NCBI GenBank assembly: GCA_036497345.1
Contig: DASXJP010000193.1
Span: 1 to 51,813, forward strand
Length of the DNA stretch: 51,813 bases
DNA from: Thermoanaerobaculia bacterium
Lineage (GTDB): Bacteria; Acidobacteriota; Thermoanaerobaculia; Multivoradales; UBA5704
Direction: 5' to 3'
The notes below the pieces were generated by a model that was given only the letters and a program-made list of their open reading frames with translations, was not told where the DNA came from and made no database searches. The position numbers and the translations under genes are program-made. Position 1 is the stretch's first letter. Each line of letters begins with the position of its first letter. Below are positions 40,641-49,467 of this stretch, piece after piece.

Positions 40641-41738
40641 TCAGATCCGCATCGGCATGATCACGCAGAGGTAGCGGGTGTCGGGCCCGTCCTGCGGATA
40701 GCCGACGCACTGCGTGTTCTCGTCCTTGAGCTCCAAGCGGATCTTCTCGGTCTCGACCGCGGACAGGAACTGGGTGAGGTAGTCGGGGTTGATCCCCACC
40801 CGGAACTCGGGACCGTCGTAATCGCAGGCGACCTCCTCGACCGCCTCCCCGAGGTCGGAGTTGACGGCCGAGATCACCACCTGGTCGGTGGCGAACTGGA
40901 GGCGGACGGCGCGCGCCCGGTCGCCGGTCATCAGCGCGGCGCGCTGCACGGCGTCGACCAGGAGCTTGCGGTCGAACAGCACCTTCTTGTCGTTGTCTTT
41001 GGCGATCACCCGCTCGTAGTCGGGGAAGGTCCCTTCGAGGATGCGGCAGATCAGCTCGCGCCGGCCGAGGCCGAACGAGAGGTGGTGCTCGCCGCGGCCG
41101 TAGGCGAGCTTGCCGTCCCCCTCGAAGCGCTGGAGCTCCTGGAGGGCCTTGCGCGGCACCAGGACGGAGTCCTCGCCGCCGGCGCTCTCCAGGCCACCCT
41201 CGACCAGGGCCAGACGGTGGCCGTCGGTCGCCACCATTTCCAGCCCTCCGTCCTTCAGCTTCAGCAGGGCGCCGTTGAGCTGGAAGCGCGACTCCTCGGC
41301 CGAGACGGCAAAGAGGATCTTGGCCACCATGCGGCGAAACTCGGTGAAGGGGATGTCGACCTTGCGGCCCTCCTCGACGGTGGGGAGGGTGGGGAAGTCG
41401 TCCGGAGCGAGGCCGTGGATCTTGAAGCGCGACTTGCCGGCCCGGATGGTGAGCACGCGCGGCTCCTCCTGGACCAGCAGCACCTCCTCGCCGGTGAGCG
41501 AGCGGATGATCTCGATCAGCTTCTTGGCCTGGACGGCGATCCCCCCCTCGCGCTTGATGTCCGCCTCGCACCAGGAGGTCAGCGAGACGTCGAGGTCGGT
41601 CGCGGCCAGGTTGAGCCGGTCGCCACGCGCGGTGAGCAGCAGGTGGGAGAGGACCGGGATGGTGGTCTTGCGCTCGACGATGCCCTGCATCGGGCTGAGC
41701 TCGCCCAGGAATTCGCTACGGGTGACGCGGATCTCCAT
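40641..41738 (-). CDS. dnaN: DNA polymerase III beta sliding clamp
   Basis: 365 aa. Starts MEIRVTRSEFL..., has TIPVLSHLLL, a three-domain length, and sits between dnaA and recF. Confidence 0.96.
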   Translation of the reverse strand: MEIRVTRSEFLGELSPMQGIVERKTTIPVLSHLLLTARGDRLNLAATDLDVSLTSWCEADIKREGGIAVQAKKLIEIIRSLTGEEVLLVQEEPRVLTIRAGKSRFKIHGLAPDDFPTLPTVEEGRKVDIPFTEFRRMVAKILFAVSAEESRFQLNGALLKLKDGGLEMVATDGHRLALVEGGLESAGGEDSVLVPRKALQELQRFEGDGKLAYGRGEHHLSFGLGRRELICRILEGTFPDYERVIAKDNDKKVLFDRKLLVDAVQRAALMTGDRARAVRLQFATDQVVISAVNSDLGEAVEEVACDYDGPEFRVGINPDYLTQFLSAVETEKIRLELKDENTQCVGYPQDGPDTRYLCVIMPMRI

Positions 41739-41750
41739 TCACTCTTCCTC

Positions 41751-41996
41751 TTCTAGAAGACATCTGAATATAGCATAGCCGTAGTAGACCGTAGGCGCTG
41801 CGGAAACGGGGAAAACCGCCCTAAGCTGTTCCATCCTGGAGCCTTGCGATTGTACCCGGGAGCTGTGCAGAGCCTGCGGACGGGTTGAGGAAAAGGAGGA
41901 AAACCCGCAAAGACAGGAAAAAATCCGCAGAAGCTCCACAACCCTTCCGGAGCCCTCTCCGCAGGCTTTCCCCAGGCACACCGTGAGCCTGCGGGA
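41751..41996. promoter_or_regulatory. Candidate oriC segment in the dnaA-dnaN spacer (AT-rich stretch plus degenerate DnaA-box-like repeats)
   Basis: AT-rich run at 41751-41790. The motif CTGCGGA / TCCGCAG recurs at 41798, 41874 and 41990 (forward) and at 41924 and 41958 (reverse). There are also CTGTGCAGA at 41863 and GCTCCACA at 41933. The repeat differs by one base from the CTGTGGAAA boxes upstream of dnaA. Confidence 0.4.
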
Positions 41997-42026
41997 ACGG
42001 CGGAATCAAATGCAAGCCGCGTGCCC

Positions 42027-43316
42027 CTAAGCGAAGTGCTGCTCGAACCCATGCAGGGTGCGGTCGAAGTCAGGGTCGGAATCGCGCTTCTTCTGGACCG
42101 TCTCGCAGGAGTACATGACCGTCGAGTGGTGCTTGTCGTTGAACAGCTTGCCGATCTCCGGGTAAGAGAGGCCGGTCAGCCGCTTGCAGAGGTACATCGC
42201 CACCTGGCGCGGGATGACGATCTGGCGCGAGTTGCTCTTGCTCTTGATCTCGGAGACCTTGAGGTCGTAATGCCGGGCCACGAACTTGATGATCTCGGCC
42301 GCGGCGGGCTTCTTCCCCTCTTCCGGCAGGATGTCCTTGAGCGTCTCGCGGGCGAGCGCCGGCGAGAGCGGCTTGTCGGTGAGCGAGGAGTAGGCGATCA
42401 CCCGCGTCAGCAGCCCCTCGAGCTCGCGGATGTTCGACTTCACCTGCTGGGCGATGAACTCCGCCACCTCCTCGGGGAGCTGCACCCCCTCCAGCGAGGC
42501 CTTGCGCTGCAGGATCGCCACCTTGGTCTCCAGGTCCGGCGGCTGGATGTCGGCGATCAGCCCCCACTCGAAGCGGCTGCGCAGCCGCTCCTCCAGCGTC
42601 GGGATGTTCCGCGGCGAGGAGTCGGAGGAGAGGATGATCTGCTTCTGGCTGGTGTAGAGCGTGTTGAAGGTGTGGAAGAACTCCTCCTGAGTCCGCTCCT
42701 TGTTGGCGATGAACTGCACGTCGTCGATCATCAGCACGTCGATCGTGCGGTAGCGCTCGCGGAAGGCCGGCATGCGGTCGAAGCGGATCGAGTTGATCAG
42801 CTCGTTGACAAACTGCTCGGCCGCCAGGTAGAGCACGCGGAGCTGTGGCCGGCTGCGCTGGATCTCGTGGCCGATCGCGTGCAGCAGGTGGGTCTTGCCG
42901 AGGCCGACCCCGCCATACACGAAGAGCGGGTTGTAGGACTCCGCCGGCTTCTCGGCCACGCGCTTGGCGGCGGCCGAGGCGAACTCGTTCGACTTGCCGT
43001 CGACGAAGCTCCCGAACGTGTACTTGGGATTGAAGCTCGACGGCGCGGGCGGCGTCTCGTCGGAGTGGATCTCGTCCCTGTCGAGCGCGAAGAGCACCTC
43101 GAAGCCCGGATCGCCCAACCCGGCCACCGCGCGGTCGACCATCGGCCGGTAGCTCTCTTCCAGCGTGTGGAGGAAGCGGGAGTTGGGGGCTACCAGGACG
43201 AGCCGGCGCCCATTCTCATCGCCCACCTTCAGCGGGCGGAACCAGGTGGTGAACTCGTCGGGATCGAGCTGCTGCTGCAACTGTCTCTGGAGAAGAGACC
43301 AATAGGATTGCGACAT
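42027..43316 (-). CDS. dnaA: Chromosomal replication initiator protein DnaA
   Basis: 429 aa. Walker A GGVGLGKTHLLHA, Walker B MIDDVQF, C-terminal DNA-binding helix AMYLCKRLTGLSYPEIGKLFNDKHHSTVMYS. Confidence 0.97.
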   Translation of the reverse strand: MSQSYWSLLQRQLQQQLDPDEFTTWFRPLKVGDENGRRLVLVAPNSRFLHTLEESYRPMVDRAVAGLGDPGFEVLFALDRDEIHSDETPPAPSSFNPKYTFGSFVDGKSNEFASAAAKRVAEKPAESYNPLFVYGGVGLGKTHLLHAIGHEIQRSRPQLRVLYLAAEQFVNELINSIRFDRMPAFRERYRTIDVLMIDDVQFIANKERTQEEFFHTFNTLYTSQKQIILSSDSSPRNIPTLEERLRSRFEWGLIADIQPPDLETKVAILQRKASLEGVQLPEEVAEFIAQQVKSNIRELEGLLTRVIAYSSLTDKPLSPALARETLKDILPEEGKKPAAAEIIKFVARHYDLKVSEIKSKSNSRQIVIPRQVAMYLCKRLTGLSYPEIGKLFNDKHHSTVMYSCETVQKKRDSDPDFDRTLHGFEQHFA

Positions 43317-45233: not shown

Positions 45234-46261
45234 GGTCTGATCCTACTTCCCTTCTCCCCTTCTCCGCCGTCCTTCCAATCTTCCCAATAGGCCCGCCAGG
45301 CGTCCATCTCCCCGCGCTCGACGAGCGCCACGTGGCAGATGGCGTCCCCCGGGTGGACCAGCGGGAGCTGGGTGAGGCCGAGGACGATCCCCGCGCTGGG
45401 GGCCTTGAGCACGCTGCGCTCCCGGCCGAAGGGGTTGCTGTGGACCGAGATCTCCTGCCCCCGGCTCAAGGGCGCTCCGAGGTCCACCTTGAGGTCGAGG
45501 ATCCCCCCTTTGCGCGAGCGGATCCAGCGCGTGCGCTCGATCCACAGCCGCAGCGGCGGATCGGCGGGCTCGCCCGGCATCATCCGCAGATGCCGCAGCA
45601 CGTTGAGCACCCCCCGGATCCCCACCTCGATGAACGGCCGCTCCAGCCGGCGGGCGCTCCCCGCCTCGTAGACCACCGTCGGCACCCCGGCCGCCACCGC
45701 CGTGCGGCGCAGCGACCCCTCGGGGCCGGCGCCGGCGACGATCAGCGGGCAGCCGAACGCCCCGGCCAGCTCGGCCACGGCGGGGTTGGCGAGGTCGGCC
45801 CGGAGCTGGGGGTAGTTGGTGCGCTCGCCGCCGGCCGTATGGAGGTCGAGCCCGAAGTCGCTCTTGCGGATCACCTCGCGGAACAGGACGTCGGCCAGGC
45901 GCGAGGTGAGCGACCCCTTGCGGCTGCCCGGGAAGGAGCGGTTGAGGTCACGCCGGTCGGGCAGGCGGCGGTCCTGGTTGAGGAAGCCGGGGACGTTGAC
46001 CACCGGCACGGCGATCAGCGTCCCCTTGAGGCCGCTGAAGTCCGTATCGTTGAGCAGGCCGCGCAGGATGCCCACGCCGTTGAGCTCGTCGCCGTGGACC
46101 GTGGCGGTGACGAACAGGGTGGGGCCGGGAGCGCCGCGCACCACCGTCACCGGCACGGTCACCGGCTCGGCGGCGTAGGACTCGGCCACCTTGAGCCGCA
46201 GCTCGGCCGTGCTCCCCAGGGGGACCGGGGTGCCCGCGAAGGCGAGCGGCTCGCGCTTCAT
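45230..46261 (-). CDS. Succinylglutamate desuccinylase/aspartoacylase-family zinc deacylase (RimK-associated)
   Basis: Internal ATG at 46261 of ORF 45230..47056 gives 343 aa. [29 protein letters not shown] overlap with the rimK stop. Confidence 0.8.
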
Positions 46262-47163: not shown

Positions 47164-47630
47164 CAGCGCTGGGGTCTCCGGGGGTGCCACTTGCGGAGGA
47201 GGTACTTGGCGGCGACGTCCACCCGGAAATCCCCCTCCAGGGCCTTGCGGCCGAGGATCATACGAAACAGCATGCCCGTGCGGTCGGTCAAGGTGACCAG
47301 GATCGTCTTGCGCACGGGGCCGAGCACCAGCTCCGTCGCGATCACCGGCCGCACCTCCGGGTGCCCCCCCGAGTCGACCACGCGCATCCGGCGCAGCACC
47401 CGCGCCTCGGCCCGCACCCGCCAGTCCGGCCGGCGGCGGTCGGGACGGAGGTCGAGCTCCACCCGTTCGGTGCCGTCCGGCAGGACCTCCAGCACCCGGA
47501 GGGAGTCGACGTGGAGGGTCGAGGTACGGGCCCCGGTGTCCACCTTCGCCTTCAGGTGGAAGACGCCGAGCGCGGGGAGATCCAGGTACTCCTTCCAGCC
47601 GACGGTCAGCTCTTCCCCACGCTCCGGCAC
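47163..47630 (-). CDS. RimK-associated putative ATP-dependent zinc protease (retropepsin-like, COG4067-type)
   Basis: [12 protein letters not shown]...[14 protein letters not shown]...MILGRKAL. I prefer GTG at 47630 (155 aa, AGGAGA 8 nt upstream). The ORF extends to 47753 through low-GC, non-conserved-looking sequence. Confidence 0.75.
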
Positions 47631-47803
47631 CTCATCTCTCCTGGGAAATCGACGTCGGCATGTAGAAATCTCCCACTCGAACGTATGCCTTTGTACGAAT
47701 GAGCACAAAAAGGGATCGCCCGCCCGGGGGCCGGGAGGAAAAACCCCGCTCAAACCGGCCTTTCTGGGGGCTTGGGGCGCTCATCGGAGATCAGGCATGT
47801 TAC

Positions 47804-48022
47804 TTGCAGATAGAGAAGAGCACAAATCAGTTGGAACACGAGGAGGAGGTTCCGTCCAGCCAACCGTATCCCATCCCTTTCGAGATCCTACGCGATCTCA
47901 TCCTTGAGAAGCCCTCCTTGGATCCCCTCATCAGGGGTAGAGCCAACCAACAGCCAACCTGAAAGCAAGGAATCTCCTCCCTACAGCCCCCCAGCCCAGT
48001 GGCCGGGGGGCCTTTCTTTTTT
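47804..48022 (+). ncRNA. Candidate structured sRNA, copy 1 of a tandem paralogous pair
   Basis: 12-bp closing helix 47842-47853 / 47969-47980. Hairpins gagatc-6-gatctc (47882-47899) and cccct-4-agggg (47924-47937). Three AGCCAACC motifs. Intrinsic terminator 47986-48022 (7-bp G/C stem plus a T-rich tail). The 5' end is not defined. Confidence 0.5.
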
Positions 48023-48108
48023 AGGGGTGAGGGGAACGGCGGCCCGCGGCCGTTTCTGTCAGCACAGAGAAGAATGCCGACTCGGGAATCTAAGATCGGG
48101 CACGGCTG

Positions 48109-48313
48109 TTGCAGAGAGCAGAGAGAAGGAAACGACGTGGGGGAGGTTCCAGACCAACCTAACTAGATCCCACCAGCTTTCGAGATCTCAGGATCTCACC
48201 CTCTTTTGACCAACCGAAATCCCCTACACACAGGGGTATAGCCACAATAGCCAACCGGAGAGATGGGGCCTCCCCCCCAAGCTCCCAGCGAAAGCTGGGA
48301 GCGTTTCCTTTTT
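48109..48313 (+). ncRNA. Candidate structured sRNA, copy 2 of a tandem paralogous pair
   Basis: 12-bp closing helix 48139-48150 / 48265-48276. The same two hairpins with different loops (48182-48197, 48221-48236). Three (A/G)(A/G)CCAACC motifs. Terminator ctcccagc-gaaa-gctgggag plus a T-run (48281-48313). Confidence 0.5.
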
Positions 48314-48363
48314 GGCCGGTCCGTCTGCCAAATTGACCGGCACCGTGCGGTTAGAATGACGCG

Positions 48364-49467
48364 ATGCGGCAGGCCGAAGCCCTCCTGACCTGGTTCGATC
48401 AGCACCGGCGCGACCTCCCCTGGCGCCGGACGAGCGATCCCTACGAGATCTGGCTCTCCGAGGTCATGCTCCAGCAGACCCGGGTGGAAACGGTGCGCCC
48501 TTTTTACAACCGCTTTCTGGAAAGATTCCCCACCGTGGAGGATCTGGCGCGGGCGGAGGTCGAGGAGGTGCTGGCTCTGTGGTCGGGGCTGGGCTACTAC
48601 CGCCGGGCCCGCCAGCTCCACGCCGCCGCCCGCAAAATCACCGAGGCCGGGTCCTTCCCGTCGACGGTCGAAGGGCTGCTGGCGCTCCCCGGGATCGGCG
48701 CCTACACAGCGGCGGCCGTGGCGAGCATCGCCTTCGGGGTGGCCGCGCCGGTGATGGACGGCAACGTCGAGCGGGTCCTCTCCCGCGTCCTCGCCCAGGC
48801 GGACGATCCGAAATCGGGCGAGGCGCGCAAGCGGCTCCTCACCGCGGCGGCCGGGCTGCTCGATCCCGCCCGTCCCGGCGACGGCAACCAGGCCCTGATG
48901 GAGCTGGGCGCCACCCTCTGCTCGCCCCGCCGTCCCAAGTGCCTCCTCTGCCCCCTCCGCCCCGGCTGCCGGGCGGCCCGCGAGGGGGACCCGGAGAGCT
49001 ACCCCGCGCCCAGGGTGAAGCGGGACGCCGAGCGCCACAGTCTCCTGGTGGCGGTGGTGGAGGACGATTCCGGAGTGCTCCTCTTCCGCCGGCCGGACGA
49101 CAGCACCCTCCTCGCCGGCACCTGGGAGCTCCCCTGGATGACCCGCGAGCGCGACGGCGTCCCCGAGCCCGGCGATCCGCAGGCGGTCCTCGCCGAACGC
49201 TACGGCGGCCGCTGGACAATCGGCCCCCGGGTGGGCGGCGTGCGCCACGGCATCACCTACCGCGACCTGGAGATCGACGTCCACCGCGCGGAGCTCGCCT
49301 GGGGCGGCGAGGTGCGGGAGGGGATGGCCGCCGGCTTCTTCGATGAGGCCGGGCGGGCGGGCCTGCCGCTCTCCTCCCTGGTGGGAAAGGTGCTGGCGGC
49401 GGTGTCCGGGACAGAATCTATGTCGGCGGCGGCACCGGCCAGGAGATCCCGGAGCCGCCGGCGATGA
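48364..49467 (+). CDS. mutY: A/G-specific adenine DNA glycosylase MutY
   Basis: 367 aa. HhH-GPD region LPGIGAYTAAAV, Fe-S loop CSPRRPKCLLCPLRPGC (C-x6-C-x2-C-x5-C), and a C-terminal NUDIX-like domain. Confidence 0.92.
   Translation: MRQAEALLTWFDQHRRDLPWRRTSDPYEIWLSEVMLQQTRVETVRPFYNRFLERFPTVEDLARAEVEEVLALWSGLGYYRRARQLHAAARKITEAGSFPSTVEGLLALPGIGAYTAAAVASIAFGVAAPVMDGNVERVLSRVLAQADDPKSGEARKRLLTAAAGLLDPARPGDGNQALMELGATLCSPRRPKCLLCPLRPGCRAAREGDPESYPAPRVKRDAERHSLLVAVVEDDSGVLLFRRPDDSTLLAGTWELPWMTRERDGVPEPGDPQAVLAERYGGRWTIGPRVGGVRHGITYRDLEIDVHRAELAWGGEVREGMAAGFFDEAGRAGLPLSSLVGKVLAAVSGTESMSAAAPARRSRSRRR

Follow-up and report, generated by a model that had tools for sequence, protein, structure and literature searches.

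What occupies the non-coding gap upstream of mutY is the question raised by the DNA analysed here, contig DASXJP010000193.1, whose full 51,813 nucleotides (nt) are called the window and supply all coordinates. The MutY homologues place the organism in the Thermoanaerobaculia, phylum Acidobacteriota. The gap, analysed over positions 47804-48313, contains two units on the plus strand, for which a repeat finder gives a register spacing of 297-300 nt and which align with 77% column identity. The account favoured here is that they are two paralogous, independently transcribed small RNA (sRNA) genes of a new family, whose RNAs would act in trans as decoys. Taken as a whole, this account has about an even chance of being right.

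The original prediction described two divergent copies of one architecture, each with a 12-bp closing helix, two hairpins, three unpaired CCAACC motifs and a terminator, and every element is present where it was placed (Table 1). The two closing helices (P1) are recovered as inverted repeats by the repeat finder, and hairpins 1 and 2, here P2 and P3, are found as described, including the P2 loops that differ between the units. Minimum-free-energy folds of the predicted transcripts give P1, P2, P3 and the terminator in both, with z = -2.25 for unit 1 and z = -5.6 for unit 2. Between the units, P1 position 3 changes from A-U to G-C, and positions 8, 9 and 10, the three further switches that had been noted, alternate between Watson-Crick and G-U pairs. 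The length given for the gap, 610 bp, holds only if the upstream Zn_protease/RimB-like gene starts at TTG 47753; with a start at GTG 47630 the gap is 733 bp. The GTG is the better-supported start, because it is preceded by an AGGAGA ribosome-binding site and because of where it places the Pfam Zn_protease domain (residues 10-144).

Table 1. Features of the two units and of the DNA upstream of them, in window coordinates
Feature	Position	Strand	Details
Imperfect palindrome, 35 bp	47662..47696	.	GTAGAAATCTCCCACTCGAACGTATGCCTTTGTAC; family consensus GTAGAAATGC-N15-GCATTTGTAC; candidate activator site for promoter 1
Sigma-54 type promoter, unit 1	47793..47808	+	aGGCATgttacTTGCA; GG 47794-47795, GC 47806-47807; predicted start about 47819
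sRNA unit 1 (type 1), about 200 nt	47819..48022	+	5' end predicted from promoter; fold, covariance-model score 116.3 bits, covariation, terminator
Unit 1, 5' tail	before P1	+	part of predicted transcript
Unit 1, P1 5' strand	47842-47853	+	GGAGGAGGTTCC
Unit 1, CCAACC	47860, 47943, 47954	+	in G-poor joiners
Unit 1, P2	47882-47887 / 47894-47899	+	GAGATC/GATCTC, loop ctacgc
Unit 1, P3	47924-47928 / 47933-47937	+	CCCCT/AGGGG
Unit 1, P1 3' strand	47969-47980	+	GGAATCTCCTCC
Unit 1, terminator	47986-48012 (hairpin), 48013-48022 (T-run)	+	
Sigma-54 type promoter, unit 2	48098..48113	+	gGGCACggctgTTGCA; GG 48099-48100, GC 48111-48112; predicted start about 48124
sRNA unit 2 (type 2), about 190 nt	48124..48313	+	fold z = -5.6, covariance-model score 133.8 bits, terminator; start predicted
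Unit 2, P1 5' strand	48139-48150	+	GGGGGAGGTTCC
Unit 2, CCAACC	48154, 48210, 48251	+	
Unit 2, P2	48182-48187 / 48192-48197	+	GAGATC/GATCTC, loop tcag
Unit 2, P3	48221-48225 / 48232-48236	+	CCCCT/AGGGG
Unit 2, P1 3' strand	48265-48276	+	GGGGCCTCCCCC
Unit 2, terminator	48281-48302 (hairpin), T-run to 48313	+	

Homologous units are found at many other loci. In three syntenic loci, whose MutY is 81-91% identical, the two units are retained together with both promoters and the motifs; one of these loci has lost the rimK operon. A scan of one genome per species with an exact pattern that required P3 yields 73 loci (the genome set), and a second pattern, requiring neither P3 nor CCAACC, yields 77 loci from metagenomes (the metagenome set). 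A covariance model of the core, R1, with 146 positions and 23 pairs, finds 123 units in the genome loci and 97 in the metagenome loci, 220 in total and 201 distinct, every one of them with a Thermoanaerobaculia or Acidobacteriota label. All but one of the genome loci carry the labels Thermoanaerobaculia, Acidobacteriota, Holophagales or Candidatus Multivoradales, the last being an order of the Thermoanaerobaculia. The single locus labelled as cyanobacterial has no model match and is taken as a chance match to the pattern. Chance matches of this kind, without a match to the covariance model, are L058 in the genome set and, in the metagenome set, L085, L088, L096, L099, L101, L105-L107, L111, L113, L118, L122, L126, L127, L132, L136, L139, L141, L145 and L148-L151. 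As far as these scans can see, being exact-pattern scans of public collections that would miss more divergent relatives outside the class, the family appears confined to the class Thermoanaerobaculia.

One unit is present in 31 genome loci, two in 34 and three in 8. The order is type 1 then type 2 in 32 of the 34 two-unit loci, and single units resemble type 2; judged by this distribution, the duplication is thus old and both copies are maintained. Two features of the type-2 units are recorded here. In most relatives P1 and the terminator are separated by an additional G+C-rich hairpin, such as CUUCCUCCUUCCCUCGGGAAGGAGG (L001 3888-3930, L002 3858-3900, L003 3888-3925), which is missing from unit 2 of the window (compare 48277-48281); the nhmmer matches span about 218 nt for this unit vs 240-250 nt in relatives. 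The sequence GGAGAGAUGGGG at 48257-48268, directly 5' of the P1 3' strand, is invariant in type-2 units. It is nearly identical to the ribosome-binding and start region of the rimB-like messenger RNA (mRNA) on the opposite strand (47630-47641), so that on the plus strand the two are 92% complementary, and since it includes GAGAU, the sequence of the P2 5' strand, it could compete for the P2 3' strand.

The covariation first seen in the closing helix holds in the wider alignment of about 200 homologues. In the genome set 96.3% of cells are paired, and 15 of the 23 pairs have changes on both sides, amounting to 107 such cells. Control alignments in which the 3' partners were slid by 1-3 columns give 16-37 both-side cells, and none of 500 shuffles reached the observed value. 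The metagenome set behaves in the same way, with 97.2% of cells paired and 12 of the 23 pairs contributing 37 both-side cells, vs 4-9 in the slid controls; in both sets the slid controls lie 3-6 times below the observed counts, and no shuffle out of 500 attained the observed number of both-side pairs or cells. Compensatory changes above the controls are found in both halves of P1 and in P2, where pairs such as GAGACC/GGUCUC and GAGGCC/GGCCUC occur. P3 is almost invariant, also in the metagenome set, and shows few compensated changes (UA to CG four times). Two P1 positions are U-G in about 40% of units and U-A in the rest. This alternation points to an RNA made from the plus strand, because the opposite strand would have A-C mismatches.

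Each unit has a promoter of its own, which the original prediction had overlooked; it is of the sigma-54 type by its signature, and it provides the strongest evidence that the units are separate genes. Both units carry the -24 GG and -12 GC elements by which such promoters (TGGCAC-N5-TTGCW) are recognised, at 47794-47808 and 48099-48113 and at the conserved distance. The sequence GGCAY-N5-TTGCA occurs three times in the 51.8-kb window, where 0.07 occurrences are expected, and two of the three precede the two units. Across the family the promoter is kept in 112 of the 117 units with enough upstream sequence, the GC element lying 20-31 nt before the model start, and of the five exceptions three show an ATGC or GTGC variant. 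Other matches to GGCAY-N5-TTGCA number only 78 in 1.19 Mb of loci, both strands included. No sigma-70-like site was found in 47400-48500. At the other end of the units, a canonical intrinsic terminator (a hairpin of -9 kcal/mol or stronger, then a T-run) is present in 148 of 188 distinct units, among them both units of the window, as had been predicted for each copy. Transcription would thus run in each unit from its own sigma-54 promoter to its intrinsic terminator, and with such a promoter the genes should stay silent as long as no unlinked enhancer-binding protein has been activated.

A candidate binding site for this activator is the 35-bp palindrome upstream of unit 1. Its centre lies at about -140 from the predicted start of unit 1, some 110 nt upstream of promoter 1. 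Loci of the multi-copy clade keep it ahead of their first unit, with either rimB or the S49 peptidase gene as the divergent neighbour, and it is absent from the single-copy clade and from the promoters of unit 2. The half-sites are rarely found elsewhere, since 70 of 75 matches in about 1 Mb of loci fall 100-260 nt upstream of an RNA unit. This position is typical of enhancer-binding-protein sites, which are expected about 80-150 nt upstream, and the palindrome may be such a site for promoter 1, to which the unlinked activator would bind.

Two further promoter-like sequences were seen. The third perfect sigma-54-type match, gGGCACGCGGCTTGCA, is on the minus strand at 42011-42026, at the stop codon of dnaA and the start of the 288-nt dnaA-dnaN spacer, and may be due to chance or be a promoter towards dnaN. 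Between the terminator of unit 1 and promoter 2, the 26 nt at 48047-48072 are 77% identical to 48103-48128 and have no intact GG/GC pair; they may be a decayed copy of the promoter.

Three other readings of the locus have to be weighed against two sRNA genes. Conservation might act on the DNA, through protein-binding sites or origin-proximal elements, and it would fit this reading that dnaA (42027-43316, minus strand) is 4.5 kb away and dnaN close by, that P2 contains GATC, and that the sequences of P2 and P3 are almost invariant. However, P1 has compensatory changes across about 115 nt, G-U wobbles are tolerated only on the plus strand, the P2 variants given above lose GATC and keep the pairing, and a directional promoter and terminator frame each unit, which leaves a DNA element highly improbable. 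The chance that the region encodes small proteins is smaller still and practically nil. Open reading frames do exist in the window (47699-47962, 47904-48209 and 47999-48166), but at 69% G+C spurious frames are common there, and those overlapping the units are interrupted by 1-2-nt insertions or deletions and by in-frame stops in relatives with 81-95% identical MutY. Substitutions in the relatives are spread evenly over the three codon positions, with no third-position bias. The codon-periodic substitution that would have spoken for the first two frames is therefore not what the relatives show; the frames are broken even in the closest of them, with 95% identical MutY, and were rejected. That the region holds non-coding, plus-strand, independently terminated structured RNAs, as originally proposed, is upheld by the open reading frame, terminator and covariation data.

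The third reading, that the units are cis-acting mutY leaders or attenuators, driven by sigma-54 and controlling mutY by conditional read-through of the terminator, draws on their position. Units of the family nearly always immediately precede mutY and lie a few kb from dnaA. This placement before mutY, with both on one strand, is seen in 99 loci and persists where MutY identity drops to about 50%; the median distance from the end of the core to the start of mutY is 119 nt. On the divergent side the neighbour is either the gene for the S49 peptidase or a rimB-rimK-astE block that has been inserted. Against this reading, the tandem units are each equipped with a separate promoter and a strong terminator, and no conserved alternative antiterminator pairing was seen. 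Moreover, mutY has a conserved -10-like TAGAAT (48352-48357) 6 nt before its ATG, and for this reason is probably leaderless and independently transcribed. In one clade the units lie between ligD and a convergent DEAD/DUF3516 helicase gene, with their own sigma-54 promoter and no co-directional downstream gene, and in L029 two units are directly divergent from dnaA, with no MutY match in that stretch. Together these observations argue against a cis-acting leader, which is considered very improbable. The features of independent sRNA genes, namely an own promoter and terminator, no conserved open reading frame and independence from the downstream gene, are all found.

Some observations on the neighbourhood are added here. 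Before the TAGAAT of mutY is a conserved palindrome that may be an operator; it reads GCCAA-A-TTGGC in relatives, and its counterpart in the window is TGCCAAATTGACC (48326-48338). The S49 peptidase gene has a TAGGAT 6 nt before its ATG (45234-45250) and also looks leaderless. The ligD-linked units form a sub-family with the P1 5' strand CGAGGGAGGTTC (L016, L017, L027, L038, L045, L047, L060), downstream of ligD and next to the convergent helicase gene, not beside mutY. In assembly SMAG_U5484 one locus is linked to mutY and another is adjacent to dnaA, with no mutY nearby (L023, L029), and some genomes thus carry at least three units at two loci. A replication or repair gene (mutY, ligD with the DUF3516 helicase gene, or dnaA) is present in every context seen. 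The RNA locus is probably near the replication origin (window 40641-43316; L002, L029), and the association with these genes may be meaningful or just origin-proximal. No plasmid or phage match that would suggest a mobile-element origin was found.

What the RNAs might do is suggested by the strands that join their helices. Each RNA has the conserved fold of a three-way junction, in which P1 closes the two short hairpins P2 and P3, and which displays three long, G-depleted, C/A-rich single strands with 3-5 CCAACC or CCNNCC motifs. The three joiners total about 80 nt, with about 10% G vs 34% in the window, 33-39% C and 24-42% A. CCAACC, the motif that had been reported three times per copy in unpaired regions, occurs 6 times in 495 nt here, whereas the remainder of the window would predict 0.14 occurrences (Poisson P about 1e-8). 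It is conserved across the family, being the top 6-mer in the joiners (185 of 194 units). At least one CCNNCC is present in joiner J1/2 of all 194 units and in J3/1 of 187, and the number per unit is 1-7 for CCA[AG]CC and 3-10 for CC[ACT]NCC. Conservation of AGCCAACC, which precedes the 3' strand of P1, is at least 85% in the metagenome set, whose search did not require it. Multiple unpaired copies of one short motif, the arrangement expected of a decoy, are thus found. A fourth hairpin in J2/3, which would place CCNNCC in a loop, was considered and rejected, since only 32 of 174 units fold there, with a median energy of 0.

The single strands would be the working surface, through which the RNAs would act in trans. 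By analogy with CrcZ, CsrB or RsmZ, we lean slightly towards multivalent capture of an RNA-binding protein, tentatively and at a little under an even chance. The reasons for this lean are that each RNA contains one motif 3-5 times over, with copies in all joiners and in all paralogues, that CCAACC is not an anti-Shine-Dalgarno sequence, and that several genes here appear leaderless. Nearly as likely is that the units specify base-pairing sRNAs, with CCAACC, ACCCUCUU and UCCNACC as redundant seeds for G-rich mRNA sites (GGUUGG, or the Shine-Dalgarno-like GAGGGU), in the manner of Qrr, PrrF1/2, OmrA/B, AbcR1/2 and CcsR1-4. G-free single-stranded segments are ideal as seeds, the motif sequences are conserved across the class, the J2/3 motif ACCCUCUU, as read from the alignments, resembles an anti-Shine-Dalgarno sequence, and base-pairing sRNA families typically include tandem paralogues that each have a promoter and a terminator of their own. 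However, CCAACC is not complementary to the Shine-Dalgarno sequence, 3-5 copies of one motif per RNA are more typical of decoys, and several genes look leaderless, their -10 hexamer lying 6 nt ahead of the ATG, which removes the usual target site. The sole neighbouring target examined, the start region of the S49 (sppA) gene as a partner for UCCUACC, was rejected: in this gene, which is probably leaderless, the complementary GGTAGGAT forms a -10-like hexamer that lies 6 nt ahead of the ATG, and so belongs to a promoter and not to the mRNA. It should be noted that the P2 tail presumably resembles the 3' end of 16S ribosomal RNA and that CCAACC is what we take to be the complement of GGUUGG in helix 45; the likeness extends over about 6 nt only and is given no weight. 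A more specific form of protein capture, with a protein that binds C-rich, G-poor single-stranded RNA (Rho, a KH-domain, an S1-domain or an Hfq-like protein), is unlikely but worth naming. Rho is a candidate because the roughly 80 nt of C-rich, G-poor sequence per RNA resemble its preference. If true, such a decoy would link a signal from the environment to post-transcriptional or termination control on a global scale, and might have a connection with DNA replication or repair, given the adjacency to mutY, ligD or dnaA.

Several points weigh against the account of two sigma-54-dependent decoy sRNAs. The transcripts, their ends and their dependence on sigma-54 are all predictions from sequence. 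The data show the anatomy of the genes, their strand, fold, conservation and promoter type and that they are non-coding, whereas transcription itself, the activator with its site, an action in trans and the way the RNAs take effect are inferred. The covariation alignments were fitted to the model, and their counts are of sequences, not of independent evolutionary events; the conservation of P3 is independent only in the metagenome set, having been imposed by the search pattern in the genome set. The palindrome could instead be an operator or promoter of the divergent gene, which is 30-75 nt away. A six-frame scan for the GAFTGA signature found no enhancer-binding-protein gene in the window or in any of the 153 fetched loci, and an adjacent activator gene was therefore rejected. 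To our knowledge, no bacterial RNA-binding protein recognises CCAACC, and several pairing seeds would account for a repeated motif equally well.

The Thermoanaerobaculia are abundant in soil and sediment and are known almost entirely from metagenomes. In this class the family offers an unusually complete and testable gene anatomy, with a promoter, a candidate activator site, a fold, an exposed repeated motif, one to three tandem copies and a fixed address. It opens a ready way into the study of sigma-54 signalling and of post-transcriptional control in these bacteria, would extend the short list of sRNAs that depend on sigma-54, and provides a seed alignment suitable for submission to Rfam.

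Comparison with known RNAs began with Rfam. No Rfam 15 model gives a gathering-level match in the whole window or in 14 diverse homologous loci, and neither Acido-1 nor Acido-Lenti-1, to which the units had been suggested to belong, gives any match; these share with the units their acidobacterial origin only. In E-value mode, 47600-48400 has only sub-threshold matches, on the terminators, the best being MmgR/suhB (RF00519), with 18.8 bits vs a threshold of 41, and BjrC68 (RF02353), with 25.6 vs 39. These two share with the units a CCUCCC stretch followed by a terminator, and neither match reaches beyond the P1 3' strand and the terminator. ARAGORN finds no element like a transfer RNA or transfer-messenger RNA in 47500-48500. 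A text search of the literature found no description of these RNAs and no regulatory RNA for the Thermoanaerobaculia.

Likeness to characterised sRNAs is therefore sought in function and layout. CrcZ, CrcY and CrcX of Pseudomonas are sigma-54- and CbrB-dependent decoy sRNAs for Hfq/Crc, about 400 nt long and with the motif AANAANAA. They share with the units a sigma-54 promoter, a repeated unpaired short A/C-rich motif, paralogues in one genome and an own terminator. However, there is no similarity in sequence or structure (no Rfam match), the motif here is CCAACC, the RNAs are about 200 nt, the activator gene is not adjacent and the phylum is another. Qrr1-5 of Vibrio are sigma-54-, LuxO- and Hfq-dependent base-pairing sRNAs of about 100 nt with four stem-loops, encoded at dispersed loci. 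Here too there are near-redundant paralogues that each carry a sigma-54 promoter and a terminator, and a conserved single-stranded (here putative) seed, whereas the units are three-way junctions of about 200 nt in tandem and without homology to Qrr.

In layout, the pairs and sets PrrF1/PrrF2, OmrA/OmrB, AbcR1/AbcR2 and CcsR1-4 resemble the units in being head-to-tail paralogues with their own promoters and terminators. Their RNAs are 60-150 nt long and have sigma-70 or RpoH-type promoters. AbcR and CcsR also have C-rich unpaired motifs, which are anti-Shine-Dalgarno sequences (CCUCCUCCC, CUCCCA) in hairpin loops; in the units, by contrast, the CCUCC-like sequence is buried in P1 and CCAACC is exposed. 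CsrB, RsmY and RsmZ are decoys for CsrA/RsmA, with a GGA motif in hairpin loops. The likeness lies in a hairpin scaffold that shows many copies of a short motif and in several paralogues per genome; CsrA itself is an unlikely partner because the strands displayed here are nearly G-free. By analogy, the closest systems are CrcZ/Y/X and Qrr1-5 in function and the tandem pairs PrrF1/2, OmrA/B and AbcR1/2 in layout. Judged by these comparisons, the RNA family is a new one of a known general kind.

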